Assembly (NCBI GenBank): GCA_049322615.1
Contig: JBMORX010000010.1
Coordinates: 25,416 to 89,415 of the forward strand
Length of the DNA stretch: 64,000 nucleotides
Source: Patescibacteria group bacterium
GTDB taxonomy: Bacteria > Patescibacteriota > Microgenomatia > CAYGWK01
Reading direction: 5' to 3'
In this document: positions 5,714-44,464 of the stretch, piece by piece
How positions within the stretch are numbered: position 1 is the first letter of the stretch
Layout: every line of letters begins with the position of its first letter
Translations under genes and position numbers: made by a program
Notes under the pieces: model-generated
Seen by the model: the letters and a program-made list of their open reading frames with translations, nothing else
What the model was told of the DNA's origin: nothing
Database searches by the model: none

Positions 5714-6783
5714 GGCGAATACTTTTTAAAATTCCATTTTTCTGGTTTTTTTATTCTTTTGGCTGGCCCAAGGTTTTGCCGGCCAACTATACATTCAGTC
5801 TGACTTTTAAATGCAATTCTCGCTGTCTAACCTGCAATATTTGGCAAAAGAGTGAAGAGGGGGAATTAACCCAGGCAGAATGGCAGAAAATCTTTTTGGC
5901 TTTGGGTAAATCGCCTTACTGGGTAACTCTTTCTGGAGGGGAGCCATTTTTAAGAAAAGATTTAATTGAAATTGTTAAAAATCTTTGCCAAATTTGTCAG
6001 CCAAAAATAATTACTATCCCCACCAATGGAATTTCAACTGCTAAAATCCAAAAAGATGTTCAGGCAATTTTAAAAGGTTGCCCCAAGACGCGTTTAATTA
6101 TCAACCTTTCTCTAGATGGAATCGGGGAAAAACATGATCAAATAAGGGGGGTTAAAGGTAATTTTGATAAAGCAATGGCAACTTATAAAAAACTGAAAAG
6201 GATAAAATCAAGAAATTTTGTCTTAGGAATTCATACCGTTATTTCAAGAGAGAATGTTAAAGACTTTTCTGAAATCTGCGATTTTGTTTTGGACCAACTT
6301 AAGCCTGATTCATATGTGACAGAAATCGCTGAACAAAGGGTTGAACTTGAGACAATGGGTAAAGATATTACTCCTAGTCTTGAAAATTATCAAAGGGCAG
6401 TAGATTATTTAGAGCAGAAGATGAGAAGGCAAAAATTAAAGGGCTTTTTCAAATTAACTCAAGCCTTTAGATTTACTTATTATGATTTAGTTAAAAAAAT
6501 CATGGAAAAAAAAGCCCAAGTTATTCCTTGCTATGCTGGGATACTTTCTTGCCAGATAGCCTCCAATGGCGATGTTTGGCAGTGTTGTGTTCGCGCCGAT
6601 GTTTTAGGCAATTTAAAAAAAGAAAATTTTGATTTTTCAAAGATTTGGTTTTCAAAAAAAGCTGATAAAATAAGAAAATCAATCAAAAATAGAGAGTGTT
6701 ACTGCCCATTGGCTAATGCTTCCTATACTAATGTTTTAATGAGCCCAACCTCAATGACTAAAGTTATCTTTAATTTTTTTTAA
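5710..6783 (+). CDS. Radical SAM / SPASM-domain protein (paralog of 990..2072)
   Basis: CNSRCLTC motif; LSGGEPFLRKDL; PTNG; GVKGNF; C-terminal Cys-rich CQIASNGDVWQCC...CYCP. Confidence 0.75.
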   Translation: MRRILFKIPFFWFFYSFGWPKVLPANYTFSLTFKCNSRCLTCNIWQKSEEGELTQAEWQKIFLALGKSPYWVTLSGGEPFLRKDLIEIVKNLCQICQPKIITIPTNGISTAKIQKDVQAILKGCPKTRLIINLSLDGIGEKHDQIRGVKGNFDKAMATYKKLKRIKSRNFVLGIHTVISRENVKDFSEICDFVLDQLKPDSYVTEIAEQRVELETMGKDITPSLENYQRAVDYLEQKMRRQKLKGFFKLTQAFRFTYYDLVKKIMEKKAQVIPCYAGILSCQIASNGDVWQCCVRADVLGNLKKENFDFSKIWFSKKADKIRKSIKNRECYCPLANASYTNVLMSPTSMTKVIFNFF

Positions 6784-8092: not shown

Positions 8093-9467
8093 ATGAAAGT
8101 TTTATTGCTTCACCCCCAACTGAAAAAATATAAACAGCCCCGTCTTCCGCCTTTGGGACTTTTGTCAATTGCCGCCGTTTTGGAGAAAGAAGGACATCAG
8201 GTTTTTGTTTTGGATTTGAATGTTGAGCCTAATAACTTAGAAAGGTTTCTCAGAAAGAGATTTGATTTAGTTGGGATTACCGCAACCACTCCTTTAATCA
8301 AAGAAGCCTGGCGACTGACTAAGATTTGTAAGAGAAGAAAGTTGCCCGTAATTTTGGGCGGACCCCACCCTTCGGCTTTACCTGAAGAATCTTTAAAAAA
8401 GGGAATAGTTGATATTGTTGTTCGTCACGAGGGTGAGGAGACAATGAAAGAACTTTGTGCCAAATGGCCAAAATACCAAAAAATTGCGGGAATTTCTTAT
8501 ATTAAAAATGGGAAAGTTGTCCATAATCCTAATCGCCCCCTAATTCAAAACCTGGATAGTCTTCCTTTCCCTGCCCATCATCTTTTAGGCGATATTAGTC
8601 GCTATAGTCCCCCTCAACCTGTTTTAACTAAACAGAAAAAAACTTTGACCTTGATTTCTTCCCGCGGTTGTCCTTATCATTGTAATTACTGCTACAAGGG
8701 TGTTTTTGGCGATCGCTGGCGAGCCCACAGCCCGGAATATATTTTAAATCTTTGGGAATATTTGGTTAAGGAATTTGGGGTCGAAGAAATCGGAGTGGAA
8801 GACGATACTTTTAATCTAGACCCAAAAAGAGTCGAGGCAATTTGTGCTGGTTTGGGCAAAAGAAAAAATTAAAACTTCCTGGACCACCGCCCAGGGATTA
8901 AGGGCGGATAGAATCACCAAAGGCCTTTTAGTGAAAATGAAAAAAACTGGTTTTTATCGAACAGGCTTTGGGATTGAATCAGGCAGCCAAGAAATGGTTG
9001 ACAAAATCGGCAAAAATTTGAATTTAGCCAAGGTCCCCGAAGTCATTTCTTTCTGTAGAAACCTGGGGATAGAATCTATTGGTTATTTTATGATCGGTAA
9101 CGCTGGCGAAAACAAAAGGACGATGGAGGAAACGATTGATTACGCCATTAAGCTTGACCCAGATATTGCTCATTTTACTATTGCCACCCCCTTACCTGGT
9201 AGCCCCCTTTATGACCAGGTAAAAAAAGAAGGAAAACTGCTGATTACTGATTGGGATCTTTATGGTTATACCCAAGGCAGGTGTTATTTTGAGATGGGTG
9301 AGGTAAAAAAGGAGCTGGTGGAGAGGATGTGGCGAAAGGCTTATCGCCAATTCTACTTACGTCCTGCAGTGATTAAACGATTTTTAACCAGAAAAGAGAC
9401 GTGGCTTAACCTCCCCAAAATGGTTCAAGCTAGTCTTTCTTATCTGGGTATACGAAAGGAAACTTAA
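8093..9467 (+). pseudogene. B12-binding-domain radical SAM protein, split by a frameshift near 8840-8880 (two ORFs 8093..8872 and 8844..9467)
   Basis: N-terminal part has a B12-binding-like fold and SRGCPYHCNYC; the second ORF continues the homology (GFGIESGSQEM as in the two paralogs); the frameshift sits at the A-run gggcaaaagaaaaaatt. Confidence 0.6.
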
Positions 9468-10939
9468 TGGCGGATATCGTTTTAGTTCAACCAGTGGTGG
9501 GTCTTTTAGATAATATTAAGACGGCTCCTGGTTTGCCCCTCTCCCTTCTTTCGGCAGCTAAGTTGGTATCCAAGGAATTTAAGGTTAAGATTATTGACCA
9601 AAGGCTGGATTTTGCCTGGAGAGAAACCCTGAAAAAAGAATTGAAAAAGAAGCCTTTGTTGGTGGGGACAACGGCGATGCTTGGGCCGCAGGTTGAATTT
9701 GCCAGGATGGTTGGGGAGGAGGCAAAAAAGATAAATCCAGAAATCCCGGTAGTTTGGGGCGGACCCCATCCCTCTGTTTTGCCTGAGCAAACTCTTCAAG
9801 ATGAAACAGTGGATATCATTGTTGAGGGCGATGGGGAAGAGACGTTTTTAAAGCTGGCTCGGGGTTTGAAAAAAAAGAAATCTTTAAAAGCAATTCCTGG
9901 TCTTTATTTCAAAAAAGGAAACAAGGTGATTTACACCCGGCAGGCACCCCTAGTTGATTTAAATAAAATGCCGGATATTCCCTATGAGTTAGTTGATGTT
10001 TATCAATACTTGCCAAGAAGGGGAAAAGTGACGGCTTTGGATATGGAAACTTCTCGGGGTTGTCCTTATCGGTGTCGTTTTTGTTACAATCCCTTTTTTA
10101 ATCGCGGTCGCTGGCGGGCTTTAAAAGCGGAAATAGTTTTGGCAAGGATAAGGAAAATTGTTGAGAAATACAAAATTAAGGGGATTTGGTTTATTGATGA
10201 TGAATTTTTTATTGATCTTAAAAGAGCCAGAGAGATCATTGAGGGGTTGATAGAATTAAATCTTCACTGGACAATTCAGGGTGTAACTGCCAATTCGGTG
10301 CTAAGGATGGATGATAGTTTTTTGTCTTTGTTGGAGAAATCGGGTTGTGAACAATTAAATATTGGGGCTGAGTCAGGATCATTGCGGATTTTAAAAATGG
10401 TGGAAAAAGGCATTACTCCTCAAGATATTTTAAGGGTTAATCGCAAGCTTAAGCCCTACAAAATTATGCCCTGGTTTTATTTTATGATTGGCTTCCCTCA
10501 AGAAACGAAAACAGATGTTCACAAAACAATTAACCTCGTTCTTCGCTTACTTAAAGAAAACCCCAGGGCGAAAGTTTCCGGGATTGGCTGTTTTACTCCC
10601 TATCCGGGGACATCTCTTTTTGAGGAAGCGAAAAAAGAGGGTTTTGTGCCCCCCAAAGATCTTCTTGGTTGGCGGACTTTTTCGGTTGACCAAATTAATG
10701 TCCCTTGGTTAAAAGGGGAGAAAAAAGCAATGGTAGAAGCGGTTCAGTTCGCCTCCTTTTTTGTTGACGAAAAAGCCCGCGATGTGGCTTCTTCACTTTT
10801 GGTCAGACTGATTGCCGAGCTTTATCGACCCATCGCTCATTGGCGCCTAAAACGGAAGTTTTGGGGTTTACCTTTTGATGTTATGATTGGCAACCGGATT
10901 AAAAAAGAATTGGCTAAAAGGAGGATTTCCGTTTTTTAA
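9467..10939 (+). CDS. B12-binding-domain radical SAM protein (class B rSAM, methyltransferase-like)
   Basis: SRGCPYRCRFCYNP; N-terminal Rossmann-like B12-binding region; ATG overlaps the upstream stop (TAATG). Confidence 0.75.
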   Translation: MADIVLVQPVVGLLDNIKTAPGLPLSLLSAAKLVSKEFKVKIIDQRLDFAWRETLKKELKKKPLLVGTTAMLGPQVEFARMVGEEAKKINPEIPVVWGGPHPSVLPEQTLQDETVDIIVEGDGEETFLKLARGLKKKKSLKAIPGLYFKKGNKVIYTRQAPLVDLNKMPDIPYELVDVYQYLPRRGKVTALDMETSRGCPYRCRFCYNPFFNRGRWRALKAEIVLARIRKIVEKYKIKGIWFIDDEFFIDLKRAREIIEGLIELNLHWTIQGVTANSVLRMDDSFLSLLEKSGCEQLNIGAESGSLRILKMVEKGITPQDILRVNRKLKPYKIMPWFYFMIGFPQETKTDVHKTINLVLRLLKENPRAKVSGIGCFTPYPGTSLFEEAKKEGFVPPKDLLGWRTFSVDQINVPWLKGEKKAMVEAVQFASFFVDEKARDVASSLLVRLIAELYRPIAHWRLKRKFWGLPFDVMIGNRIKKELAKRRISVF

Positions 10940-14633: not shown

Positions 14634-14701
14634 GGTTTTGGCCCCACCACGTCGGACGTGGTAGGGAGCCGCGTTTGACGCGGGAACGTCAGACGTTCCG
14701 C

Positions 14702-21499: not shown

Positions 21500-21637
21500 T
21501 TTAACTTGCGGCTTTATTGTGCGTAGGCATAAAGTGGAACGTCAATATTAAATCGGTTAAAAGTGTGGTATACTTTCTCCAGATAAGCAAAGAGAGAGTT
21601 CGTATCTAGGCTCTCTTGGCTCACTGATTCGGAGAAT

Positions 21638-21748
21638 CGGAATACTCGGAAAACTCGGAGTATCAGTGTATCAGATAATCTGATTATCAGATTTTTCTGA
21701 TTTCTCTGGCTCGCTGAGTATTCTGAGTTTTCTGATCCTCTGGAACTT
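21638..21748 (+). repeat. Repeat family A copy 1 (TCAGA/CTGA-rich, about 130 bp), immediately upstream of tRNA-Lys
   Basis: Aligns with 31119-31250 and 45040-45208: ctcggaaaactcggag..tcagat..ctgattatcagat..ctgagttttctgatYctctgRaac. Confidence 0.8.
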
Positions 21749-22337: not shown

Positions 22338-22681
22338 ATCTTCGGTATGAGATAGAAGTTTTCGCCAAGCTTGCAACCACGGAAGCACAGAAGGTTGCAG
22401 AAGCACAGAAAGTGCCCCGCTTGGCGGGGCTTTTCAGTTTTACATACCTTGAAAAATGCACCTTAATAAGTGAATAGAAAATCTATTCACATCCTTGACA
22501 ACCGCGCTCAGCGCGGTTTAAGCCGAGCTCAGCTCGGCAATCAAGATGTGACAGGAAACGAACAAAAGTTCGATTTCTTGCCCGCCTAAATTTTCGCACT
22601 CGGCCTTTCAGTACTATTCGTACACGCCTCGTGCCAAAATTTTTGGCGGACTGCAAAAATTGAACTTCGTTCAATTTTTTT

Positions 22682-22724
<43 letters not shown>

Positions 22725-23478
22725 TAGGCATGCAAGTCGATCGGTCGTTCGTGTCTCACTTTCGTTCGACACTTACTCCCTCAATAGCAAATATTAAATA
22801 GTAAAAATCAAAAATACATAGTAAACATTAAAAATATTTAAATTTTGATATGTATATTTACTATTTAATTTTTAATATTTAATTTTGAGCGAGTGGTGAG
22901 CGGGAGCGAGACACGAGCGATAGAGGCAGACGGGTGAGTAATGCGTACCAACCTACCTCCAAGTGAAGCATAGCCATTCGAAAGGATGGGTAATACTGCA
23001 TACGGTGGGTGGAGTTCTAAGGGTAGAAATGAAAAATGAAAATAGAAAAAATAAGCAAGCTTGTTGCTAGCGCAATAAAAATGACAATTAAAAATTTTAA
23101 AATTTTACATTGTAATTTTTCATTTTTATTTTTTAGTTTTTAATTTTATCAGTTTATTTAGCAACTTTTACTTTTAGATCTCCATCCATCAAAGAGAGTA
23201 ACTTCTCGCTCGGAGATGGGGGTGCGTCCTATCAGCTTGTTGGTGGGGTAAAAGCCTACCAAGGCGATGACGGGTAGCTGGACTGAGAGGTCGGTCAGCC
23301 ACAAGGGGACTGAGAGACGGCCCCTACACCTACGGGTGGCAGCAACTAGGAATCGTTCGCAATGGGGGAAACCCTGACGACGCGACGCCGCGTGGAGGAT
23401 GAAGGCCTTCGGGTTGTAAACTCCTTAATCCCGAACGATAGCGAGGGAGGATTAAGCACCCACTAACTACGTGCCAGC

Positions 23479-23721
23479 CACGTACAATTTTTGCGATGGC
23501 TGGTGGCGCGTAGTCTAAATCCGACTATATGCTGGGAACTCTTTTGATGTCCGCAAACAGTGTTGTGGTTTTTATGACCCGCGTCAAAAGACAATCAGCA
23601 GGCAACCCGACGTTCAGTTTACATAAACGTGGGAAGTCCTCAGAGACTATACGTCGGATTCCGATAGAATCGGGAAAGATATAGTCCAAATGTTACGTAG
23701 CAAAAATGTTACGTGGCCAGC
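23479..23721 (+). mobile_element. Group I intron (no ORF) at the 16S 515-region
   Basis: Splits GTGCCAGC|..|AGTTGCGGTAA; contains the P7-type core cagagactatacgtcgg...gatatagtcc. Confidence 0.6.
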
Positions 23722-24548
23722 AGTTGCGGTAAGACGTAGGGTGCAAGCGTTATCCGGATTTATTGGGCGTAAGGCGTTTCGTAGGCGGTCCGATGAGTCC
23801 CGACTTAAATACCCCGACTCAATCGGGGAAGTGGTTGGGATACTATCGGACTTGAGGTTTTTGGGAGGTGCTGGAATTCGCGGTGAAGCAGTGAAATGCG
23901 TTGATATCGCGAGGAACACCAAGGGCGAAGGCAAACACCTAAAAAACATCCCGTAAATTGCCTTCGGCAATAACGGGACTCCCGTAAAGAGCAATCTTTA
24001 TGGGAATTCTGTATGCCAAAAGAATTGAGGGAACCCCGTTAGTCTTGAGCGTAAGCGAAAGACTTTACGGGGCCTGACGCTGAGGAACGAAAGCTAGGGG
24101 AGCGAAAGGGATTAGAGACCCCTGTAGTCCTAGCCGTAAACTATGCTCGCTAGATGCCCGGCTTGTGCTTCGCACAAGTTTCCGAATTAATCCGAATGCT
24201 TGGTTTTGGTTTAAAATTTATTCGGATAAATTCGGATGAAGAACTTGACCTAGAAGATCAGTCTCAACATCCGAATAAATCCAAATAAGAAAAGCAAACA
24301 AACACATTAGGATTAAATTCGGATATCTCGTGCGGAGCACGAGCTAGGTGTCGTAAGCTAACGCGTTAAGCGAGCCGCCTGGGAAGTACGGCCGCAAGGC
24401 TAAAACTTAAAGGAATTGACGGGGAGCTGCACAACCAGGGGAGCGTGTGGTTTAATTCGAGACGAAACGAAGGACCTTACCTGGGTTTGACATGCCGACG
24501 TTCTAGTCCGATGAAAATCGGACAAGTCCGCAAGGAGGTCGGCACAGC

Positions 24549-24579
<31 letters not shown>

Positions 24580-25015
24580 GGGTGTTGGCTTCAGTGCCAT
24601 AACGAGCGCAACCCCTATTGTCTGTTAAATTTTCAGACGAAACCGCCCCGCCTATTTTGTCGCGGTTGTTAACACTATTTATTCTTGAGTTACAACCTGA
24701 ATTTAGTTAATAATGGCGGCGCAAGGGCGAATAGCCCTGCCCTATTCGGGCACAGCGCCGCGATTGGAATCAACGGCGGCAAATATGGCGGGGAGGAAGG
24801 AGGGGACGACGTCAAGTCAGCACGGCGCTTATGTCCAGGGCAACACACACACTACAATGGACAAAAACAGCGAGTTGCAAGCACGTAAGTGTAAGCTAAT
24901 CTCGGAAATTTGTCCTCAGTTCAGATTGTGGGCTGCAACTCGCCCACATGAAGATGGACTTGGTAGTAATCGCGGGTCAGCAAACCGCGGTGAATACGTT
25001 CTCAGCTCTTGTACA

Positions 25016-26053
25016 AAAATTGCGCCTACCGGTTTGGTTTTCCATTCCGTTGAAATCGGAACCAAAAAGAATAATTTTTGGAAGCGAAATAACATCCTCC
25101 GATGGTGACATCGAAGCGAGAAGGGTTAAAGTAGCATTTTCTAGCTTGCAGTCGAGACGGTCCCGCCTATTTGATGACCTTTCGTACAAATAGGGAAATC
25201 ACTTATTCTAATTTTGCCTTTAAAAATAAGCAAAATAGGCGGGATATTTGGGCTCGAGATGGAAAAGAAAGGAAAACCAAATTACGTAGGGAGATCTGCC
25301 ATTGACCCACCAAAAAATTGCAGCATGAGCCGCAGTTGAAATCAACTAAGGCGAATGCTAAAATTTAGGCGGGTAGTTGTCGGTGTGAACTAACAACGTA
25401 AATGGTAGAAGTCTGCAGAGTGCGTAGTACCCCGCCGAAGCGCACCACGAGCCGTGTATGAATAATACTGAAAAGGCGAGTGGCAAGCGAATGGCTGGGG
25501 GAAGGCACGTAAACTATCCAAATGGGCGCATACAAAATCATCAGTCCTTGGTATATCGTTGGTTTTACCGAGGGAGAAGGTTGTTTTGCCATAATTCTTT
25601 CGAGACATAAAACAAAGAAGGCTAAAAGGGATGCCGGACTTTGTTTTGAAATTGAGCTTCGGGGGGACGACAAACCAATCCTTGAAAGAATTCAAAAGAG
25701 GCTGGGGTGTGGTCAAATTATTGATCTTGAGTACGAGCGTTATGGTTGGAAACCCCATGTGAAGTATGTCGTTAGAAAGCAAAAAGATCTTTTCTTTAAG
25801 GTGATTCCTTTTTTCAAACAGTTTCCGCTACAAGGCAAAAAACAAAAAGATTTTGAGCTTTTTTGCCAAGCCGCGGAAATTATAAAAAATAGGGAACACT
25901 TAAAAGATGATGGAATCAAAAAACTTGAAAAAATCAGGGAATTTATGAATGAGCGCCGACCGATGTTTGGATAGTCATTCGCGAGGGTGCGGGAAAACCG
26001 CGTGCCCCGTGAGAATAGAAAATATTTTGAGCAATCAGATATTTATCTATGAA
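25016..26053 (+). mobile_element. Intron at the 16S 1391-type site carrying a LAGLIDADG HEG
   Basis: Exon junction cttgtaca|cactgcccgtca reconstitutes CTTGTACACAC(C/T)GCCCGTCA. Confidence 0.65.
25522..25974 (+). CDS. LAGLIDADG homing endonuclease (single-motif, 150 aa)
   Basis: WYIVGFTEGEGCFAI motif; inside a 16S intron. Confidence 0.8.
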   Translation: MGAYKIISPWYIVGFTEGEGCFAIILSRHKTKKAKRDAGLCFEIELRGDDKPILERIQKRLGCGQIIDLEYERYGWKPHVKYVVRKQKDLFFKVIPFFKQFPLQGKKQKDFELFCQAAEIIKNREHLKDDGIKKLEKIREFMNERRPMFG

Positions 26054-26144
26054 CACTGCCCGTCAGATGAACAAAGTCAGGGGCACTTGAAGTCCCGATT
26101 TAATCGAGATTAAAGTGAACTTGGCGATGAGCATCAAGTCGTAA

Positions 26145-26920
26145 AAAAGTTGCGACTCCCGACGGTAACGTCGGGAAAAAATCTGGCTATATCGGGGAAG
26201 CCTAAATCTGCTAAAATTAAATTAGGGATATGGTAACCGCGAGGGAACCTCGATTTAATCGGGGACTCCGTAGAGACTATACGCCAGTTCCTGTCAGAAA
26301 ATGACGAAAGCATATTTGCTGGGAGCACTCCATGATGCTACCGAGCGAAAAACCACCTATCGCATTGCTCAAAAGAGCAAATCGTATATTGAATTTCTAG
26401 CCGAAGGGATTAGATCCTTGGGCCGAAAAGCCTGGATGTACAAGGAAGGAAAATCAAGAAATCTTTATGTAGTTGAATTTTCTAAATCCTTATTAAAAAA
26501 TACTAAAATTTCCTCTCGGCAAGAAAAAATTGACTATGTGCGTGGCTATTTTGATGCGGAGGGTGGAATTGCTCGAGATCCGAAAGTGAATTATTATTTG
26601 TATTTTGCTCAGAAAAATTTGGGAGATTTACAAAAAACTAAACATTTTTTGGAAGAATTAGGCATCAGTTGTGGAAGAATTCATAACCCAAGCAAAAGGG
26701 CGGATCCAGATTACTGGCGATTCTTTATAAGAGCAAAATCTTATGAAGATTTTGCCAGAATAATTGGTTCGGATCATCCAGAAAAAAGTCATTTTCTGAG
26801 AGGATAAAGAGATAGTCCATGCCTCTGGAAACAGAAGGAAGAACCCCGAATAATTTTACCGTTCGCCGGAGTATCATTCGAACTGCGGCTCACGGAGCAA
26901 TTCAACGGGGTGAACATGAA
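26145..26920 (+). mobile_element. Group I intron at the 16S 1506-type site carrying a LAGLIDADG HEG
   Basis: Splits GAAGTCGTAA|CAAGGTA; P7-type strands gtagagactatacgcc (26272) and agatagtcc (26812). Confidence 0.6.
26301..26807 (+). CDS. LAGLIDADG homing endonuclease (168 aa)
   Basis: RGYFDAEGGIA motif; second motif region LLGALHDATE; inside a 16S intron. Confidence 0.7.
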   Translation: MTKAYLLGALHDATERKTTYRIAQKSKSYIEFLAEGIRSLGRKAWMYKEGKSRNLYVVEFSKSLLKNTKISSRQEKIDYVRGYFDAEGGIARDPKVNYYLYFAQKNLGDLQKTKHFLEELGISCGRIHNPSKRADPDYWRFFIRAKSYEDFARIIGSDHPEKSHFLRG

Positions 26921-27156
26921 CAAGGTATCCCTACTGGAAGGTGGGGATGGATCACCTCCTTTCTAAGGAGTAATTCGGAGCGATTAAGCAACTAAGCAAT
27001 TGAGCTATTGAGTTTTTCTTAATAGCTTAGTAGCTGAATAGCTTAATAGCTAAAATACACCCGAGAAGGCGAACTCGTTAAAATCGCCAAATTTCCTGTC
27101 ACGTAAGAACGTTGATTTTGCTCTGCAAAATCTTACGTTCAACGTGACTAGGGACG

Positions 27157-27846: not shown

Positions 27847-28551
27847 TTAAGAGACTGGACCACCTGAATGATTTGGTGGTGGGATAGCCCGATAGATATG
27901 GACCTGGACGCCAAACGGCGGCCGCGGGCTGGTGTGAAGGTTTTCCCAGTTAAGGATAACCTGATCTGGGTTACAGACGAGTGAGGCAATGCTCACTCGG
28001 AGAGTCCACCCCCGATCCCCCCAGTCGAAGAGGTAAATCGTCTCACCCTTTCCGGGGTGGAACAGAATTACTTCCTCGAAGGAGTCCATTGCCATTCTCC
28101 CCGCTGGTTGTCCACCAATCTCCTTCCAGTAAAATTCGACGACTCTCCAATTAGGGTTATTCACCCTTATTTGAAGAGGCGGACATGAAGGGGGAGGAAC
28201 AGGAGGAGGTGGGACGGCCGTGGGCGGTGGTGGTGGAGGTGGTGGAGGAGGTGGGGGAGGTGGTGGACAATCCGGTTCGCCGTGCAGACACCCCTGAGGA
28301 GACGCATGGTTGTTGCCAGGATTTCCTGGACGACCATGCAGGTCACCATTACTGCTTCCGGTCTCCACCGGATTTCCTGGTCCGCCAGGCTGTCCGTGAC
28401 CATTTCCCTGGCTGTGAGGCGGAGGTCCTCCAGCCACCACAGTTGCTGGTGCTGCCAGTACCAGTACCAGCATGCAAATCGCGAGAATTCTTACCGCTCT
28501 CATTTCCTTCTCCTTCCCATTTTTATTTTTCGTACGCCATTCACTTGTCAA
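27847..28551 (-). CDS. Secreted Pro/Gly-rich protein with a 20-residue poly-Pro tract
   Basis: Signal peptide MRAVRILAICMLVLVLAAPATVVAG; GNGHGQPGGPGNP..; CPPPPPPPPPPPPPPPPTAVPPPPVPPP. Confidence 0.5.
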   Translation of the reverse strand: MTSEWRTKNKNGKEKEMRAVRILAICMLVLVLAAPATVVAGGPPPHSQGNGHGQPGGPGNPVETGSSNGDLHGRPGNPGNNHASPQGCLHGEPDCPPPPPPPPPPPPPPPTAVPPPPVPPPSCPPLQIRVNNPNWRVVEFYWKEIGGQPAGRMAMDSFEEVILFHPGKGETIYLFDWGDRGWTLRVSIASLVCNPDQVILNWENLHTSPRPPFGVQVHIYRAIPPPNHSGGPVS

Positions 28552-28764
28552 GGAACAAATGCGCCAACATTTGTGACGCAGACCTCGCCGAAGTCCGCCA
28601 GCAGGCGAGACGAAGGCGGGTCAAGGAACAATTAAAGAATTTGTCTTTAATAACCAAAAAAGAATGGACAGCAGAAATCGCCCATTCCTAGTTATTAAAT
28701 TGCGGCGATAGTAGCATAAGACTTGCCAAAAATCAAGTTTTTTAGTAAAATATTTTTAAGATTG

Positions 28765-28805
28765 GGCGATTAGCTCAGTTGGTTAGAGCAGCCCGCCAAA
28801 ATTTT
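28765..28805 (+). other. Orphan tRNA 5'-half fragment (tRNA-Ile-like acceptor, D-arm and 5' anticodon stem) directly upstream of tRNA-Ile
   Basis: GGGCGATTAGCTCAGTTGGTTAGAGCAGCCCGCCAAAATTTT; near-identical to 31294-31335. Confidence 0.6.
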
Positions 28806-28877
28806 GGGTCGGTAGTTCACCGGTAGAACGCTTACCTGATAAGTAAGAAGTAGATGGTTCGACTCCATCCCGACCCA
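28806..28877 (+). tRNA. tRNA-Ile (GAU)
   Basis: GGGTCGG/CCGACCC acceptor; anticodon stem CTTAC/GTAAG with loop CTGATAA; T-loop TTCGACT. Confidence 0.85.
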
Positions 28878-28923
28878 CAGTTTTGAAGAAGAAGGCGAAT
28901 CGGGAAGGGCGCTCCGCTCCAAA

Positions 28924-28952
28924 TTAGCCTCTTGACAAAAAATCGCACGTGC
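28924..28952 (+). promoter_or_regulatory. sigma70-like promoter (TTGACA-16/17-GATAAT) with an internal CGCACGTGCG palindrome
   Basis: cTTGACAaaaaatcgcacgtgcgATAATTtg, upstream of ORF 29209. Confidence 0.5.
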
Positions 28953-29208
28953 GATAATTTGTCAATAAATTAGCCTCAAAATTTAAAAGAAAAACCCAAA
29001 AATTCTAAAGAACAATGTTTAAAACTTTAAAGGCGCAACCGGTGGAGTCAACAAGAAATTGCTTTCCGTTGCCCGATTGCGCCATCAAAAAAAGCAATCT
29101 CCAAAATGTTGACTCCAATAACAATATACCAAAACTAAGAATAGAAAAACAAGTGGATTTCGGTACTTGAATTTTGAAAATATGATATACTTTTACTTGG
29201 AGGTAAAA

Positions 29209-29982
29209 ATGGAAAATCAAATAAGCATAGGTGATCAAAATAGCCAGCAAATTGGCCAAAATTCGATAAATCCACTTATCAGCAACAAACAGGACACAAA
29301 GCCCGTTTGGCAATCCGACGCCTTTATCATATTGACTCTATTATTATTTTGGCCAGTGGGCTTGTTTCTGATGTGGAAATATGGACCGTGGAGGAAGTTG
29401 GTAAAGTGGTTACTTACCGTATTTTTTACACTAGCGTGGTGGCCGGTCATTTTAATATTTTTGTTTATAGTTTTTCTCAAGGGGGTTGGAGTGGCCAATA
29501 AGGCTTATTACTCTCTGCCGATGGTAAAGAAAAACACTGATATTTTTTCTTGCAGTGCTGTTACCCAACCATGGGGCAAGTGTAAAAATACGGAAGTTGG
29601 TTTTTCATTCGAATATCCGGCTGACTGGTACTATAAAGTTGTAAATCCGCCAAAGGATATAGTATTTAGTGATAAGCAAGAAAAATTAGAAGAAGCTTAT
29701 ATTATTTCTCTTTACCATGATTTCTACGACACCGAAGAAAGAGCTAAAAGAAAAGAGGATGTAAACGATAAAGAACTAGTTGTAAATGGTTTATGGGCTA
29801 CTAGACATGATGTACGATCTAGTGGAATTTATGCTTCACGCGTAAAAATATTATATAATCGTACACTTTACACATTCCAAATAATGCTAACTCCCGGATT
29901 GGGAGGGAGGCAATATTCTGAAACAGAGCTGAAGAATTTTGACTCTATATTTGATCATATGTGGAACAGTTTTCAAATCTAG
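29209..29982 (+). CDS. Membrane protein (hypothetical), 2-3 TM helices plus a C-terminal domain
   Basis: RBS ggagg 8 nt upstream of MENQIS; hydrophobic FIILTLLLFWPVGLFLMW and WWPVILIFLFIVFL. Confidence 0.5.
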   Translation: MENQISIGDQNSQQIGQNSINPLISNKQDTKPVWQSDAFIILTLLLFWPVGLFLMWKYGPWRKLVKWLLTVFFTLAWWPVILIFLFIVFLKGVGVANKAYYSLPMVKKNTDIFSCSAVTQPWGKCKNTEVGFSFEYPADWYYKVVNPPKDIVFSDKQEKLEEAYIISLYHDFYDTEERAKRKEDVNDKELVVNGLWATRHDVRSSGIYASRVKILYNRTLYTFQIMLTPGLGGRQYSETELKNFDSIFDHMWNSFQI

Positions 29983-29991
29983 AAGTAATTT

Positions 29992-30210
29992 ATGAATGAC
30001 GATACACTGAAGAGCAAAGAAAAGATCATAGTTTGGATTGCAAATTTAATAAATCCTTTGATTGCCGGGTTTTTATTTTATTACTCGTGGAGGAAAAGAT
30101 TTCCAAATAAAGCAAAACAGGCAAATACAATTTCTTTTCTAGCTCTTGGGATTGACTTTATTATTTATATTTTGCTAACTAACTGGTTTAAACTAGGGAG
30201 AACGTTTTAA
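29992..30210 (+). CDS. Small membrane protein (72 aa, hypothetical)
   Basis: Two hydrophobic helices; 10 bp after the upstream stop. Confidence 0.3.
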   Translation: MNDDTLKSKEKIIVWIANLINPLIAGFLFYYSWRKRFPNKAKQANTISFLALGIDFIIYILLTNWFKLGRTF

Positions 30211-30413
30211 ATTTGCTCGGCGGAGCCGAGCAAAAATCGCGCGCGCGAAACATAAGCGAGGCCGAAGGCCGAGCCCTTCGACTGCGCTCAGGGTAAACTC
30301 CAAGATGGCGCGGCGAGTGGGCGGCGGCACTCGCGGCGCTACCCTTGAAATAAAGTCCGAATTTTTTCGTAAAGAGTCCACCGTTTCCCAAACTGCCCAA
30401 AGAGCAGTTTTTT

Positions 30414-30866
30414 ATGCGAGAAAGAGAAGACCTTAGTCAGCAAATAAGAGAAATAAAAAAAAGAGCCTTGCTCGTTCTTCAGGGGGAAAGGCGAGAGGTA
30501 ATTCTTTGGTCTTTTGGAGCACCTTTGCCCAAAGAGGTGGAAGAAGCAATTTTAGAGTTTGAAAGAGAGTATGAGGATCCTAGAAGAAATATTTTTTCCT
30601 CCGCCAGAGAAGAAGTTTATTCTGGTTTGCGAATTTGGGTTCAAACAAAAGACTATCCTCTAAAAGGTCTGTCTTCCCATCGGGATGCTGAAATTATCTT
30701 AAGACAAAAAGTTCGGAATTTTCCGGCTAGACCGCCCCATATTCCCCACCTTCCTTCCATGCCCCATCGATTTTCTCATCAAGAGGAATGGAGAGTAATT
30801 AATTTTAGTTGGCAGAGAATACTTGAACGAATTCGAGAAAAGTTGGCTTCGTTCCTTCGGGCTTAA
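30414..30866 (+). CDS. Hypothetical protein (150 aa)
   Basis: Charged N-terminus; no recognisable domain. Confidence 0.4.
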   Translation: MREREDLSQQIREIKKRALLVLQGERREVILWSFGAPLPKEVEEAILEFEREYEDPRRNIFSSAREEVYSGLRIWVQTKDYPLKGLSSHRDAEIILRQKVRNFPARPPHIPHLPSMPHRFSHQEEWRVINFSWQRILERIREKLASFLRA

Positions 30867-30932
30867 CCCTGTACAACACTTACCTGCTCCCGAATACTTC
30901 GTGTTCGCGTCGCAAGGGCGTGTATGCGGGGC

Positions 30933-30961
30933 TTGACAAGACAAAATGCCTTTGTTATAAT
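30933..30961 (+). promoter_or_regulatory. Consensus sigma70 promoter (TTGACA-17-TATAAT) upstream of the tRNA/23S/5S block
   Basis: gcTTGACAagacaaaatgcctttgtTATAATgc. Confidence 0.65.
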
Positions 30962-31118
30962 GCTTTTTAGTTAGGAGTCAGTCCTAAGTTTAATTCATGA
31001 GAAGCCTAAGAAATTTAATAAGTCGTTTAAGACAGTTTTTGCGTGGGAAATAGTTTGGGCTTTTCAAAGCACATTAAGCTGGCTCCGATAAGGAGCCATT
31101 TTGTTTCGGAGTAATCAG

Positions 31119-31244
31119 AAGACTCGGAAAACTCGGAGAATCAGGCGGTCAGATTGTCAGAAATTCTGATTATCAGATTTCTCTGATCTTTCCGACGCAC
31201 TGAGTTTTCTGATTCTCTGAAACGAGGGCCCGTAGTTCAACTGG
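31119..31244 (+). repeat. Repeat family A copy 2, followed by tRNA 5'-fragments
   Basis: Aligns with 21638-21767, including the GGGCCCGTAG(T/C)TCAA tRNA-Lys-like 5' end. Confidence 0.8.
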
Positions 31245-31293
31245 CCCCGTAAATCCGCCTTCGGCGGTAACGGGGTAAACAGAACATTTTGGG

Positions 31294-31458
31294 CCGTTAG
31301 CTCAACTGGCTAGAGCAGCCCGCCAAAAATTGTGAGAAGGGCCTATGGCGTAACGGTAGCGCATTTCGTTTGCAACGAAAAGGTTGGGAGTTCGATTCTC
31401 CCTAGGTCCACACAATTTAGGCGGGAGGTAGAGGGTTCGAATCCCTCACGGTCCACTA
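31294..31458 (+). other. tRNA-like split gene: 5' half (31294-31338) and 3' half (31411-31458) flanking a complete tRNA-Ala
   Basis: 5' half GGGCCGTTAGCTCAACTGGCTAGAGCAGCCCGCC; 3' half TAGGCGGGAGGTAGAGGGTTCGAATCCCTCACGGTCCA; the acceptor and CCCGCC/GGCGGG stems are complementary; 7-bp inverted repeat AATTGTG/CACAATT brackets the inner tRNA. Confidence 0.5.
31339..31410 (+). tRNA. tRNA-Ala (UGC)
   Basis: GGGCCTA/TAGGTCC acceptor; anticodon stem TTTCG/CGAAA with loop TTTGCAA; T-loop TTCGATT. Confidence 0.85.
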
Positions 31459-33116
31459 GCACCTTAACAATTGAAGAGAACCGCATTTATTCTAATTCAT
31501 GGCCTAATTTTTATTAAAGCAAATGGTGGATGCCTTGGTGGCAAGAGCCGAGGAAGGACGCGGCAGGTGGCGATACTCGTCGGGGAGAAACCTAGCATTC
31601 TTTGATCCGGCGGTTTCCGAATGGGGCAACCCGGCGCAGTGAAAACTGCGTCAAGCGCTGTTTCACTGCGATATTAAATAGTAAATAGTAAAAATCAAAA
31701 ATACATATTAAAATTCAAAAAGATTTTTCTCTTTAAAATTTTACTATCTATATTTACTATTTAATTTTTAATATTTGATATCGCTGCGAAGCAGCGTTGG
31801 GGAACCACCCGAACTGAAACATCTAAGTAGGGTGAGGAAAAGATAGAGCTTGTGCTTCGCACAAGTTTCCGAATGAATCCGAATGCTTTTCATTGGTCTA
31901 AAATCTATTCGGATAAATTCGGATGAAGAACTTGACTTGAAAGTTAGTTTCAACATCCGAATAAATCCGAATAAACAAAATCAAGAAAGCGTATTAGGAC
32001 TAAATTCGGATACTCGCGCGAAGCGCGAGCAGATTCCGCAAGTAGCGGTGAGCGAAAGCGGAAAAGCCTAAACTCGTGCGGAGCACGAGTTCGCTGAACT
32101 ACGCTGATTCATACGCTGAACTACGCTGAAACCTAATTTTCTTCTGCGTTAATCCGCGTCTTGATCTGCGTTTATCGGCGATCTCATGCTTCGCATGAGA
32201 GTTGGAGGACTCCAACGTGGGAGTGTCGAGGGTAGTCGAAGGACATGGAATTGTCCACCAGAGAAAGTGAAAGTCTTGTAGACGAAACCTGAAACACCCC
32301 TAGGAGCACCTAAGTACCATGGGGCAAATACCCTGTGAGAATCTGGCCGAACCATCGGCTAAGGCTAAATACTCTTGCTGACCGATAGTGTACCAGTACC
32401 GTGAGGGAAAGGTGAAAAGAAGGGTTTAAAACCTAGTGAAATAGAACCTGAAACCGTTTGCTTTCAAACAGATAGAGGCCCGGGAGTGAATTCTGTTTAC
32501 AATCTTCAGCGATTTTCAGCGTTTTGTTCAGCGTCAATCAGCGCTAATCGCTGATAAACGCGGATAACTACGCGGATTAACGCTGAAATAATTGTAGATA
32601 GTACTCACTTCCGAGCTAATATCGTGCCTATTGAAGAATGAACCGGCGAGTAACTATGTGTTGCGTTTTGGTTAATCCCATTTAAATGGGAGAAGCCGTA
32701 GCGAAAGCGAGTCTTAATAGGGCGTTAAGTAGCACATAATTGACCCGAAACCGGGCGAGCTAACCATGGGCAGGGTGAACCCGCCTAAATCGGCGAGGGG
32801 AGGCCCGAACCCGTTGCTGTTGCAATAGCATGGGATGACCGGTGGTTAGAGGTAATATGCCAAACGAGCCCGGAGATAGCTGGTTCTCCCCGAAATATAT
32901 ATAGGTATAGCCTTAATTTTAACTCCTCCTGAGGTAGAGCACTGGATGGTCTCGGCAGCGCAAGCTGTCGTGATCAACCAAACTCCGAATTCGGGGGCGA
33001 GAAATTGAGGAGTCAGAACGACCGGGCTAAGCTGGTCGCTCGAGAGGGAAACAACCCAGACTTTCGTCTAAGGTCTCAAAACTTTGGCTTAAGTGGAAAA
33101 GGAAGTATTTACCCTA

Positions 33117-35217: not shown

Positions 35218-36126
35218 AAACAAGAGTCGATTGTCGAGGTTAAACTCAGCTCATAACGGTGAAATCCTTATCATTTTAGAACCCAGCTTGAGAATGTTAA
35301 AATAAATGAGAGGACAATACCGTGGGAAGTTATTGGGAAAACAAAAACTTACAGAGACGATGGGTTCTTCTTAAGAAAGGCTTGCGATTGACACAAAAGC
35401 AGAGATCAGTGTTAATTGGTTCCTTACTTGGAGATGGAACATTGAGACGTGGCATAAGAGCAATCAATGTTAATTTTAAAGTTGAACACGGTTTGCGTCA
35501 GAAAGAATATGTTTTCTGGAAGTATCTGGTTTTCAGAAATTGGGTATTTACTGAACCTAAATTGAGTTACAGATATAGAGATAATGGGAAGAGATATTTA
35601 AAATCTTGGTGGTTTAGGACAGTTCGGCACCCTGTTTTAACCAAGTATTGGAAGCATTTTTACTCTGGCAGGAAAAAGATTATTCCAGATTTAATCGACA
35701 AACTGTTTGATTCATTGGTTTTGGCTGTTTGGGTCATGGATGACGGGTGTTATCAACACGGAAGAATTGATATTAGCACCTATGCTTTTACACTTAAAGA
35801 AATCCATCGTTTACAGGATGCATTAAGGACGGTGTTTGCTCTTGAATCTCACTATTTCAAGGATAGAGAAAAAGGTTATCGGATATATTTCTCTGTTTCG
35901 GAGACAAAGAAAGTTATAAATTTTATTCGTCCTTATATAATTCCTTCAATGCAGTATAAAATTGGTTTATCCCAACAACCCCGTAACGACTGATCCCTGA
36001 AGTATGCGCGCAAGTGCTTAATTTTGGGGTGAGATGGAAAGAATTCTTTCTTCCATCACACGCTGAGTCCTGGACTGTTTGGCCCAGGAAAGGTATAGTC
36101 TACACCATTAGTAATATTGGATTTTG
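35218..36126 (+). mobile_element. Intron with a LAGLIDADG HEG in 23S domain V (after GGCACCTCGAT)
   Basis: Exon CACCTCGAT|..|GTCGGCTCATCGCATCC. Confidence 0.65.
35322..35993 (+). CDS. LAGLIDADG homing endonuclease (double-motif, 223 aa), GTG start
   Basis: LIGSLLGDGTL and LAVWVMDDGCY motifs; RBS gagagga. Confidence 0.8.
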   Translation: MGSYWENKNLQRRWVLLKKGLRLTQKQRSVLIGSLLGDGTLRRGIRAINVNFKVEHGLRQKEYVFWKYLVFRNWVFTEPKLSYRYRDNGKRYLKSWWFRTVRHPVLTKYWKHFYSGRKKIIPDLIDKLFDSLVLAVWVMDDGCYQHGRIDISTYAFTLKEIHRLQDALRTVFALESHYFKDREKGYRIYFSVSETKKVINFIRPYIIPSMQYKIGLSQQPRND

Positions 36127-36723
36127 TGGTCGGCTCATCGCATCCTCCCGCTGAAGTAGGCGGGAAGGGTTGGACTGTTCGTCCATTAAAGCGGTACGTG
36201 AGCTGGGTTCAGAACGTCGTAAGACAGTTCGGACTCTATCCAGAGCATGCGTTGATTTCTGAGGGGAGCTCTCCTTAGTACGAGAGGACTAGGAGGGAGG
36301 AATCCCTGGTGTGTCGGCTGTTCCGTCAGGAGCATCGTCGAGTAGCCACATTCCTAGTGGATAACCGCTGAAAGCATCTCAAGTGGGAAGCCCACCCCAA
36401 GATTAGAAATCGTTAAAGACCCGTCGAAGATGACGACGTTTCCCCCTTCGCTGCTTTGCAGCTTCGGGGGGACCCCGCGTAGCTCGCAAGAGCGAAGTGG
36501 GGGATAGGCTGGAGGTTAAAGGGCAGTAATGCCTTAAGCTTACCAGTACTAATCGGTCAAAAGAATTAGGCCATGAACTAGAATAAATGAAGAGGCGTAA
36601 AAGTTTTTGCGCTTAAGCCTTTCGGTCTCCGGAGCGGACTGGAGCCACTCCTTCCCATTCCGAACAGGATAGTGAAACAGTCCAGCGACCCGTAAAATTT
36701 GCGCAATTTAAGATTTCAAAGTA

Positions 36724-36842
36724 TAATAAATATGCTTCGGTGATAAGAGCGCCGTCGAACTACTCCTTTCCATTCCGAACAGGATAGTAAAAGGCGGCAG
36801 CGGGGACGATAGTTAGACCTTGTGTTTAGCGAAAATACCTCA
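36724..36842 (+). rRNA. rrf: 5S rRNA (119 nt)
   Basis: Helix I GCTTCGG..CCGAAGC; loop C region CCATTCCGAACAGGATAGTAAAAG; followed by a T-run. Confidence 0.65.
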
Positions 36843-37187
36843 TTGCCGAAGCTTTTTTATTGCGCAAATTAACGGGTCAGGGACGTTACGAAGCTTTACG
36901 TCCCGCTGACGATAGTTCCCCGTCTAACGGGGGCGAAAATAGGTCGAGGCCGGAGGACTTGAGCGCAAAAACTTATCCCGTTGAACCGCGTGGTCACGCG
37001 GCATGGGACTTTGCGCGGCGCTTCAAAGACGTTATTCCGCTTACAGGGATATTGTTTTCCTCCCCCAAAAGGGGTAAAATTAAAAAAATCCTAAAAAGAA
37101 AGAAGGTTGAGATGGGTGGGAAAAACAAAAGTATCACAAGAAGCAAAAGTATCACGAGTATCACGGGCTAAAAAAGAACCCCAGACA

Positions 37188-43356: not shown

Positions 43357-43692
43357 AATTAGAGAAATAAGCAAATAAGCAAATAAGCAAATAAGCAAAT
43401 AAGCAAATGACAAATATCAAATTATAATTTGTAATATTTGTTTATCGCGAAGCGACAAGTTTTGCTTATTTGAGATTTGTAGTATTTGCTTATTCTTGTG
43501 GGGCCTATAGGTAAACGGTATACCGCACCCTTCGCATGGGTGAATTCCGAGTCCGATTCTCGGTAGGTCCACCACGTAATCCCGCCTCTGGCGGGAAACG
43601 TGGTAGGAACGTTTTCGCCAAAGGCGAATTACGTTCCACCCTTCGTCGGGGGCATGCCCCAGACATGCACCCTTAATTCTTGATTTTAATTC

Positions 43693-44388: not shown

Positions 44389-44464
44389 GGGCCGTTAGCT
44401 CAGTTGGTAGAGCGTCCCGATGGCATCGGGAAGGTCACCAGTTCAAATCTGGTACGGTCCACCA
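44389..44464 (+). tRNA. tRNA-Ala (GGC), CCA encoded
   Basis: GGGCCGT/ACGGTCC acceptor; anticodon stem TCCCG/CGGGA with loop ATGGCAT; T-loop TTCAAAT. Confidence 0.75.

Follow-up and report, generated by a model that had tools for sequence, protein, structure and literature searches.

The Correia/NEMIS elements of Neisseria are about 100–150 bp long, contain no open reading frame (ORF), end in terminal inverted repeats and form a long hairpin when transcribed; many dispersed copies lie beside genes, and some carry promoter-like sequences. The intervening sequences of the 23S ribosomal RNA (rRNA) of Salmonella, Leptospira, Campylobacter and others are sporadic stem-loops of about 100 nt that replace the loop of a helix and are removed by RNase III without religation. 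Here we describe a palindromic element, E, that shares features with both, in a 64,000-nt stretch of DNA from a Patescibacteria group bacterium (assembly GCA_049322615.1, contig JBMORX010000010.1, positions 25,416–89,415; hereafter the window, whose own coordinates are used below). In the 16S–23S spacer of its rRNA operon, the arms of E bracket two complete transfer RNA (tRNA) genes, tRNA-Ile(GAU) and tRNA-Ala(UGC), and each of these cargo genes is nested in what is left of a second tRNA gene, its shell. The operon is of the intron-rich type, a kind reported for Patescibacteria (PMC13011429).

Like the Correia/NEMIS elements, E is short (90–120 bp) and ORF-less, with terminal inverted repeats and dispersed copies. 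It differs from them in that its cargo can be a complete tRNA or 5S rRNA gene sited inside a broken copy of the same gene, in that neither a clean target-site duplication nor a partner transposase could be identified, and in that its arms are conserved across an apparent phylum-level group, whereas Correia/NEMIS elements are conserved within one genus. With the 23S intervening sequences it has in common an extended stem-loop in place of a hairpin loop (the anticodon arm in the class A loci described below; D, anticodon or T loops; 5S). Yet an intervening sequence leaves a fragmented but working rRNA, whereas the tRNA that hosts E cannot work in pieces and function comes from the gene inside the insert; a tRNA fragmented at its anticodon arm could presumably not decode. 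Islands and prophages integrated at tRNA genes likewise disrupt a tRNA gene yet keep its function and leave partial copies behind, but they involve the 3′ part only, form a chimeric gene, span kilobases and bring an integrase, whereas E holds a whole independent tRNA between inverted repeats in about 105 bp. The group I introns of Patescibacteria tRNA genes occur in the same organisms, also target the tRNA anticodon loop and are selfish insertions that essential RNA genes tolerate (the 16S and 23S genes of the window likewise contain group I introns, with LAGLIDADG genes). They restore the host gene by self-splicing, whereas E is without a ribozyme, the host gene stays broken and rescue comes by replacement.

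Two further systems invite comparison. The disrupted tRNAs of archaea include non-canonical bulge-helix-bulge introns as well as split and permuted tRNAs (PMC4033280, PMC3978253). In these too, the interruption can fall at many positions (in the D loop, the anticodon loop or the T arm), and flanking helices bring the pieces together; E has no bulge-helix-bulge motif, its exons are unjoinable into a decoder, it is bacterial and its insert is itself a tRNA. In fish, the Dada DNA transposons are directed at multicopy small RNA genes (PMC8869645). They resemble E in inserting specifically inside tRNA, small nuclear RNA and other small RNA genes, but these eukaryotic elements are autonomous, code for proteins and depend on the redundancy of their targets, whereas E brings its own replacement to a target that is probably single-copy. 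In the full-text literature that we searched, including the survey of Patescibacteria tRNA introns (PMC13011429), we found no description of tRNA-in-tRNA nests. Relative to that literature, a whole replacement gene carried in a 100-bp palindrome and nested in its own dead copy, for tRNAs and 5S alike, would seem to be a new combination. E is a small inverted-repeat element with a substantial chance of being a distinct class of gene-overwriting element. On balance, we think it somewhat probable that the half tRNAs of the window are shells of its resident tRNA-Ile and tRNA-Ala genes, each overwritten by a cassette that resembles a miniature inverted-repeat transposable element (MITE) and carries a working copy of the same identity.

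The tRNA-Ile nest (28764–28899) and the site in front of it comprise:

28723–28751, + strand: promoter-like site TTGCCA-17-TAAAAT, 12 nt upstream of the shell (10/12 consensus matches; a consensus match only)
28764–28791, + strand: tRNA-Ile shell, 5′ part only; tRNA positions 1–26 plus one G
28792–28805, + strand: left arm of E, CCCGCCAAAATTTT (CCCGCC-A-AAA-TTTT), preceded by G and abutting the tRNA-Ile
28806–28877, + strand: cargo tRNA-Ile(GAU), called by ARAGORN, 67.9 bits in Rfam; CCA not encoded
28879–28899, + strand: degenerate right arm, of which AGTTTTG (28879–28885) still pairs with CAAAATT of the left arm

The tRNA-Ala nest (31226–31455) comprises:

31226–31290, + strand: outermost, third-layer tRNA 5′ fragment, GGGCCCG TA GTTC AACTGG (31-nt GC hairpin, 31245–31275) TAAACA GAAC A TTTT
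31291–31318, + strand: tRNA-Ala shell, 5′ part; positions 1–26 plus G, acceptor GGGCCGT
31319–31338, + strand: left arm of E, CCCGCCAAAAATTGTG (CCCGCC-A-AAA-A-TTGTG, 31319–31334), then an AGAA linker
31339–31410, + strand: cargo tRNA-Ala(UGC), 70.3 bits, with G3:U70; CCA not encoded
31411–31425, + strand: right arm of E, CACAATTTAGGCGGG (CACAA-TTT-A-GGCGGG)
31426–31455, + strand: tRNA-Ala shell, 3′ part, AGGTAGAGGGTTCGAATCCCTCACGGTCCA; variable loop, T arm, acceptor 3′ strand ACGGTCC and discriminator A

Both cargo tRNAs are presumed to be working genes; neither encodes CCA, which three other tRNAs of the window do. At the tRNA-Ala nest, the acceptor strands of the two shell parts pair at 7/7 positions, G3:U70 among them, and 31291–31458 folds as a cloverleaf within a cloverleaf (−70.8 kcal/mol, z = −5.45), in which the predicted stalk is a continuous helix with one A·A mismatch and a single bulged A. 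ARAGORN called the joined outer halves a tRNA and, with a TTTGCAT loop put in, a tRNA-Ala(UGC). In the truncated mode of Rfam, the isolated region 31262–31324 gave no match, and the 3′ half matched only the tRNA-like end of transfer-messenger RNA (tmRNA), at 11.3 bits against a threshold of 47 bits. A tmRNA or two-piece tmRNA identity was rejected, given this sub-threshold match to the 3′ end only and the absence of any ARAGORN tmRNA call in the window. The outermost fragment corresponds to positions 1–26 of yet another tRNA, its D loop occupied by the GC hairpin, and is without a 3′ partner.

The tRNA-Ile nest is less complete. Its shell consists of 27 nt at 28764–28790, GGGCGATTAGCTCAGTTGGTTAGAGCA (acceptor strand, D arm and position 26), which in Rfam truncated mode gave a weak match (28764–28797, 13.8 bits, tRNA model 1–32). 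From the right-arm block TTTAGGCGGG just ..AAGGCGAA.. survives, no matching shell 3′ half follows the cargo in the window, and the fold of the locus is not significant (z = −1.4); the 3′ half of this shell has been lost. The 5′ parts of the two shells (that of Ala at 31291–31317) are identical at 33 of 38 positions, the CCCGCCAAAA block included, and the 18-mer TAGAGCAGCCCGCCAAAA occurs twice in the window against 0.04 expected.

Much of a preliminary description of this DNA stands with adjusted borders. It had reported a 5′ half before an intact tRNA-Ile, which is present but begins at 28764 rather than 28765, and a second, almost identical 5′ half, which begins at 31291 rather than 31294. 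The complete inner tRNA-Ala(UGC), the matching 3′ half and the AATTGTG/CACAATT inverted repeat around the inner tRNA are all real. The third, hairpin-interrupted 5′ fragment exists too, starting at 31226 and not at 31245, a 19-base offset. Its assignment of GCCCGCC/GGCGGG to an anticodon stem has to be given up: this is the terminal helix of E, found also where there is no tRNA, and the GC clamp was mistaken for an anticodon stem because the cassette takes the place of the anticodon arm. As for the partial duplicate said to lie upstream of tRNA-Glu at 14641, the 7-mer GGCCCCA (14641–14647) is there and nothing further is shared, which makes it a weak case. This tRNA-Glu leader (14641–14701) starts with GGCCCCA like the tRNA itself and continues with three small GC hairpins, and in the minimum-energy fold the upstream GGCCCCA pairs with the 3′ acceptor strand of tRNA-Glu; it may be a heavily decayed shell or chance.

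A scan of a genome collection with the 18-mer TAGAGCAGCCCGCCAAAA gave 41 matches, of which 38 were chance occurrences in unrelated coding sequence and three (L023, L024 and L041) were relevant. L024, a distant relative labelled Patescibacteria whose 23S 5′ part is 75% identical to that of the window, has the same tRNA-Ile 5′ half and stalk, followed by AAAATTTAGGCGGG and a complete matching 3′ half (GGGCGAC/GTCGCCC). Between the two genomes, the tRNA-Ile shell 5′ part with the left arm is identical at 39 of 42 positions (93%) and the tRNA-Ile cargo at 69%. The tRNA-Ala of L024 is ordinary and un-nested, so that the nest is polymorphic for presence and absence between L024 and the window. This gene matches the window tRNA-Ala shell at 49 of 58 comparable positions and the window cargo at 68%; therefore, the shell is the orthologue of the normal gene and the cargo belongs to a different lineage. 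The same arrangement surrounds a tRNA-Val(UAC) in L041 and a tRNA-Thr(UGU) in L023, the latter with an additional Trp-in-Trp case that uses a related clamp. Far from being absent or degenerate in relatives, as simple duplication debris might be, the halves are complete in L024, in L041 and in many metagenome loci. In L041, the nested tRNA-Val is one member of a dense array of 13 tRNA genes (2100–4480, minus strand), which also holds a CTA-anticodon tRNA that ARAGORN calls Pyl and that may be an amber suppressor; the Gammaproteobacteria label of this contig could result from a binning error.

In its general form, E reads CCCGCC-A-AAA-TTT, cargo, AAA-TTT-A-GGCGGG. Scanning metagenome contigs for CCCGCCAAAA-N70-100-TTTAGGCGGG returned at least 120 stretches. 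Two matches inside 23S genes (L071 and L120) are native rRNA helices that fit the pattern and were excluded from the element count. Among the matches listed, there are 116 distinct elements, 51 with a tRNA (13 amino acids) and 65 without, proportions that are biased by a scan pattern in which mismatch type and cargo length were fixed. The 65 non-tRNA elements of this set enclose about 75 nt of poorly conserved sequence. Each arm consists of a 6-bp GC clamp, the A·A mismatch, AAA/TTT and then a variable helix; the mismatch reads U·U where the tRNA lies on the opposite strand (13 of 54 tRNA-bearing loci). Past the searched 10-mers, the arms pair over a mean of 5.07 bp, compared with 3.60 (standard deviation 0.11) for shuffled partners, and compensatory arm variants such as AAAACTTTGC/GCAAAGTTT are present. 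The contigs that carry E appear to come from Patescibacteria (candidate phyla radiation); among them are two of 649 and 864 kb, as long as entire small genomes. The two-arm pattern had no match in the viral contigs scanned.

The non-tRNA copies behave as dispersed intergenic repeats. In L133 (3836–7700), four diverged copies without a tRNA occupy spacers between the genes for L4, L23, L2, S19 and S3; their cargo is 62–88% identical, against a background of 48%, and they start a few bases past a stop codon and end 3 nt before the next ATG (..GGCGGGtaaATG). This locus has no L22 gene between S19 and S3. An analogy with integron attC sites (TTTAGGC resembling the GTTRRRY core site) was rejected because the L133 elements sit between ribosomal-protein genes and not cassettes. 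Rfam searches of the whole window, and of the nest locus at E-values up to 10, gave no family for the halves or for E. Pfam searches of ORFs near the nests (16S to tRNA-Ile to tRNA-Ala) gave LAGLIDADG endonucleases and nothing else above curated cutoffs. Neither 780 kb of related loci nor the window contained an E-bounded segment long enough to encode a protein; this search did not extend to whole genomes.

For the shell analysis, we used the 54 distinct tRNA-bearing loci (element plus flanks) among the matches listed, oriented by their cargo before the junctions were compared. Nearly all of them are flanked by pieces of a second tRNA for the same amino acid as the cargo. The flanks scored a mean of 50.7 against their own cargo and 27.6 against cargo for other amino acids, the best flank match among other loci is usually one for the same amino acid, and G3:U70 is retained in all tRNA-Ala shells checked. 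Four classes of junction were distinguished. In class A (..TAGAGCAG-E-AGGTC..), the whole anticodon arm is replaced, that is, 17 nt without any duplication, and the junction (..GCAG-E-AGGT.., clamp form CCCGCC..GGCGGG) is the same for seven amino-acid identities: Ala (window type), Ile, Val, Thr, Lys, Pro and Cys. Class B (X-TTCA-E-CAAG-Y) was found with Ala, Ile, Glu and Met, and class C (X-CTTG-E-TGAA-Y), its reverse complement, in the anticodon loops of Pro and the D loops of Arg, Leu and Val. In class D (Arg-CCG, Leu-CAA), E replaces the D-stem 3′ strand through the anticodon. In classes C and B, E has the host dinucleotide TG (or CA) at either end, and an additional CT..AA lies further out.

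Put as a rule, a host X-TG-Y becomes X-CT-TG-E-TG-AA-Y or the reverse complement, as seen in L046, L113, L107, L122, L139, L054, L150 and L077 (class C) and in L102, L140, L091, L134, L050 and L073 (class B). We know of no transposition or recombination scheme that yields a 2-bp repeat with two extra bases outside on each side. A model in the style of IS200/IS605, with CTTG as the native target tetranucleotide, was rejected because only TG is native. To rebuild class B and C shells, CTTG-E-TGAA was reduced to TG, or TTCA-E-CA(A/G)G to CA, and the product was submitted to ARAGORN. A shell tRNA was recovered across the junction in 13 of 25 cases, with the amino acid of the cargo in 12 of the 13 and its anticodon in 10; the failures were shells that are truncated or have further insertions. 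Deleting exactly CCCGCC..GGCGGG plus 0–12 flanking bases restored shells in some cases only. When the outer halves of the window were spliced in silico, every junction gave a cloverleaf but only A-rich pseudo-anticodons (AAA, AAAA, TTT), and the outer tRNA was rejected as a decoder. No specific anticodon can be regenerated, because the class A junction is identical for seven amino-acid identities.

The shells are decaying. Some are truncated, such as the tRNA-Ile shell of the window, and others have taken up GC hairpins in their D or T loops (window 31245–31275; L107 compared with L142; L073; L161). Between the related loci L109 and L159, divergence is far greater in the shells than in the cargo, and a T-stem pair is broken in the L159 shell. 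Nesting can also be repeated: the shell of L102 has the sequence of its cargo, repeated twice, and three layers are present in L128, in L050/L108 and at the tRNA-Ala locus of the window. A tRNA-Pro(GGG) cargo is near-identical in L113 and L139 despite dissimilar shells and flanks; Pro cargo mostly begins with CGGAG, and Pro shells with CGGGG or CGGGC. Nests with other palindromic arms, which the pattern did not select, are present in L123 (about 8800–9000), L117 (about 10090–10320) and L147 (about 5630–5860). Among these three are a tRNA-Ile(UAU) in an Ile shell with arms CCCGCCTGCCAGA/..GCGGCGGG, a tRNA-Ile(GAU) with arms CCCCAGTACTAAAATT/AAATTTAGTACGGGG and a tRNA-Pro(GGG) with arms GCCCGGCACTAAATTTT/AAAAATTAGTGCCGGGT.

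The small GC hairpins are a second recurrent insertion of these loci, with forms such as CCCCG..ATCCGCC-TTCG-GGCGG..CGGGG and, alternatively, a double hairpin TTCCGCC-NNNG-GGCGGATC-AGCC-TTGG-GCTGA. Some interrupt the D or T loops of tRNA shells and others lie in spacers (window 31245–31275, L107, L073, L161, L154 and L024 at about 860–890).

The 5S rRNA gene of the window is nested in the same way as the tRNAs:

36620–36688, + strand: outer 5S shell, 5′ part, aligning to inner 5S positions 1–67 (5S model 14–66, 39.3 bits)
36689–36876, + strand: palindrome-bounded 5S cassette with left arm CCCGTAAAATTTGCGCAA and right arm TTGCGCAAATTAACGGG, a promoter-like TTGCGC-17-TATAAT and a T run
36736–36851, + strand: complete inner 5S, 63.5 bits
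36877–36960, + strand: outer 5S shell, 3′ part, aligning to inner 5S positions 70–116, with an extra small hairpin at about 36879–36905

The outer 5S is split at about position 67–69, and the fold of the nest has a z-score of −6.76. In all, E or E-like pairs occur in the window at 22581–22650, 25162–25243, 25306–25373, 28792–28899 (right arm degenerate), 31319–31425 and 36689–36876. Two of these E-like palindromes lie in 16S insertions (25162–25243 and 25306–25373; CCCGCCTATTTG..CAAAATAGGCGGG and CCCACCAAAAAATT..AAAATTTAGGCGGG). A third (22581–22650), CCCGCC-T-AAATTTT..AAAATTT-TT-GGCGGA, flanked by CTTG, lies 25 nt upstream of the 16S 5′ end; the cargo of all three is short.

Under the overwriting that we favour, a cassette of about 105 bp, bounded by the imperfect palindrome E, would have broken the resident tRNA genes of the rRNA operon, replacing in the window the entire anticodon arm of the shell (positions 27–43). 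The cargo tRNA would be transcribed from the promoter of the old gene within a longer precursor; given the candidate promoter at 28723–28751, the pre-tRNA-Ile transcript would have the shell 5′ half as its leader. In such a precursor, the arms of E would form a stalk of 16–20 bp that keeps the cargo cloverleaf apart from the shell, and the cargo would be released by RNase P together with a CCA-independent 3′ nuclease such as RNase Z, with CCA presumably added later. The shell halves would be by-products with no part in decoding and would decay: the Ile locus would have lost its 3′ half, and the Ala locus would retain an older outermost fragment with a hairpin insertion. E itself is a family of small, MITE-like palindromic repeats, presumably non-autonomous. 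We infer that the cassette moves or has moved, and finds its targets, either as a non-autonomous mobile element or by recombination in which the shell halves serve as homology arms. Where cargo and disrupted gene match, a copy would persist because the cargo is indispensable once the resident gene is broken, and re-insertion into cargo that still resembles the target would give rise to multi-level nests.

A number of observations weigh against this explanation. No transposase, recombinase or nuclease could be linked to E in the 780 kb of related loci and the window, and the junctions lack the appearance of a plain target-site duplication. Independent insertions at random would hardly produce the same exact 17-nt replacement in seven tRNA types. 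A tRNA cargo hardly ever occurs without a cognate shell around it, which survivorship alone may not explain, and the cargo proportions carry the bias of the scan pattern noted above. The better conservation of the tRNA-Ile shell 5′ half (93%) than of its cargo (69%) could mean that the shell is under selection and not dead. Finally, both the processing steps and the standing of the cargo as the only working copy are themselves what we infer from the anatomy.

The conservation of the shell points towards a different reading, in which shell and stalk are a processing scaffold that selection has kept for maturation, a functional pre-tRNA architecture and not a relic. The outer acceptor/T-arm minihelix would then offer sites at which RNase P and RNase Z cut to trim the spacer of the rRNA operon, and the stalk, possibly an RNase III site, would insulate the folding of the inner tRNA. 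RNase III substrates are helices of about two turns, and by analogy the stalk, at roughly two helical turns, would be of suitable size. In its favour are the great stability of the nested fold and the class A shells of many loci, in which 7/7 acceptor pairs are preserved and the T stems are mostly unbroken. In addition, E copies sit exactly at the cistron boundaries of a ribosomal-protein operon, as would fit a processing hairpin, and the high identity of the Ile shell 5′ half is seen between genomes with 23S 5′ parts only 75% identical. We nevertheless judge such a scaffold unlikely. Shells are often truncated or full of extra hairpins, and the tRNA-Ile nest of the window lacks its 3′ half while its cargo is intact; in L109/L159 the shells have diverged more than the cargo, with one shell T-stem pair broken. 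The insertion falls variously in the D loop, at position 31/32, in the anticodon loop or before the T stem, unlike what one processing design would give, and L024 matures its tRNA-Ala without a nest. Alternatively, no mobile element may be involved. Palindromes close to highly structured RNA genes may have led to slippage in replication or to template switching that duplicated a gene inside itself, and E would be no more than a hairpin motif widespread in these genomes, such as one that punctuates operons. Such local debris would account for the nearly identical shell and cargo of L102 and L050, which look like tandem-like repeated units, for the same architecture arising from arms of several different sequences and for the failure to find a mobility enzyme. 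It is quite unlikely in our view, since in the window and at many loci the cargo is only about 60–70% identical to the shell and of a different lineage, the same 14–18-nt arms are conserved in contigs and contexts of widely differing kinds, the unrelated shells of L113 and L139 hold near-identical cargo, and four diverged copies of one non-tRNA element occupy four separate spacers. The preliminary suggestion of a remnant of gene conversion or duplication thus holds in that the halves are remnants; the cause that we favour is recurrent insertion or replacement by a cassette, not duplication debris. A tRNA-like structure with a role in processing or regulation, also suggested there, is possible.

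Two further readings are far less probable. The halves could be exons of a working interrupted tRNA, joined after removal of the insert (by a group I intron, an archaeal-type bulge-helix-bulge route or a new nuclease/ligase pathway), with the inner tRNA as a passenger of the intron. The outer halves do form a full cloverleaf minus the anticodon loop, and functional RNAs inside archaeal tRNA introns are known, such as the C/D box RNA within the intron of tRNA-Trp. Group I introns are also known from tRNA anticodon loops of Patescibacteria (PMC13011429). Against this, the 107-nt insert had no RF00028 match (28500–31520, E-values up to 10) and is too short for a ribozyme core; no motif of 3-nt bulge, 4-bp helix and 3-nt bulge was seen at the junction on inspection of the sequence and the predicted structure; the stem-adjacent sequences (AAAAATT.. 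/ ..AATTTA) are the same for seven amino-acid identities; and in classes B and C no single contiguous excision gives a native 7-nt loop. We regard a working interrupted tRNA as very improbable and already largely refuted. A tRNA with a 100-nt insertion that hosts another tRNA, as the locus was initially read, is therefore apt as a description of the DNA and fails as an intron of a working tRNA, because the class A junction is the same for seven identities. Partial tRNA copies beside intact tRNA genes are also a classic signature of integration (bioRxiv 10.1101/2022.07.05.498093), and the halves could have arisen as duplicated attachment sites when an island or prophage, driven by an integrase, took the tRNA gene as its integration site. 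But the insert is about 105 bp, with no integrase and no ORF, the fragments are 5′ halves directly upstream instead of 3′ fragments at an island's distal end, what lies inside is an entire, different tRNA gene and not a chimera of host 5′ and element 3′ parts, and the pattern is absent from the viral contigs scanned. We consider an attachment site hardly credible.

Going beyond the overwriting of individual genes in the window, and more tentatively, E cassettes may be selfish 'overwrite' elements of structural RNA genes in general, which would enter the loop regions of the cognate tRNA or 5S gene, or be copied there by recombination, destroy that gene and make themselves indispensable as its only working copy; we regard this as possible, though short of probable. 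If so, they would achieve homing without splicing, cargo that resembles the target would be re-invaded while diverged cargo would be immune, and over time element-borne lineages would replace vertically inherited tRNA and 5S genes across Patescibacteria. Essential single-copy RNA genes of very small bacterial genomes would then be taken over by small cassettes, a third way for a selfish element to live in an essential gene besides introns and gene-rebuilding integrases. Some tRNA and 5S sequences would also depart from the organismal tree, with consequences for phylogeny and for inference from tRNAs. Since tRNA-finding tools report the inner genes only, the nest architecture is invisible in current annotation. 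The conserved stalk (GC clamp, A·A or U·U mismatch, A/T tract) is a candidate recognition site of a nuclease or recombinase, and its position at cistron boundaries may bear on operon RNA processing in a group without a genetic system. As a natural RNA inside a tRNA scaffold, the nest parallels the engineered tRNA scaffolds used for recombinant RNA expression.

For the sake of completeness, the remaining features of the operon are given here:

22676–26961: 16S rRNA gene, with its exact 3′ end GGATCACCTCCTT at 26949–26961, interrupted by group I introns and LAGLIDADG genes
25522–25974 and 26301–26807: LAGLIDADG genes in 16S insertions
31503 to about 36573: 23S rRNA gene, containing a LAGLIDADG gene at 35322–35993

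Both rRNA genes extend further than the initial Rfam table implied. A second group I match in the 16S gene is weak (26133–26838, 29.4 bits in Rfam, under threshold). A motif-rich block (ctgattatcagattt..tctgat..ctgagt..ttctga) lies upstream of tRNA-Lys at 21610–21748 and has a similar counterpart upstream of the tRNA-Ala nest at 31150–31225; the two may be a common promoter or upstream element. At 30933–30961 there is a perfect TTGACA-17-TATAAT site, extended by TG. Two more tRNA-Ala genes (CGC and GGC), un-nested and with CCA encoded, lie at 43501–43574 and 44389–44464, and the acceptor stem GGGCCGT/ACGGTCC is common to the tRNA-Ala(GGC) gene and the dead UGC shell.

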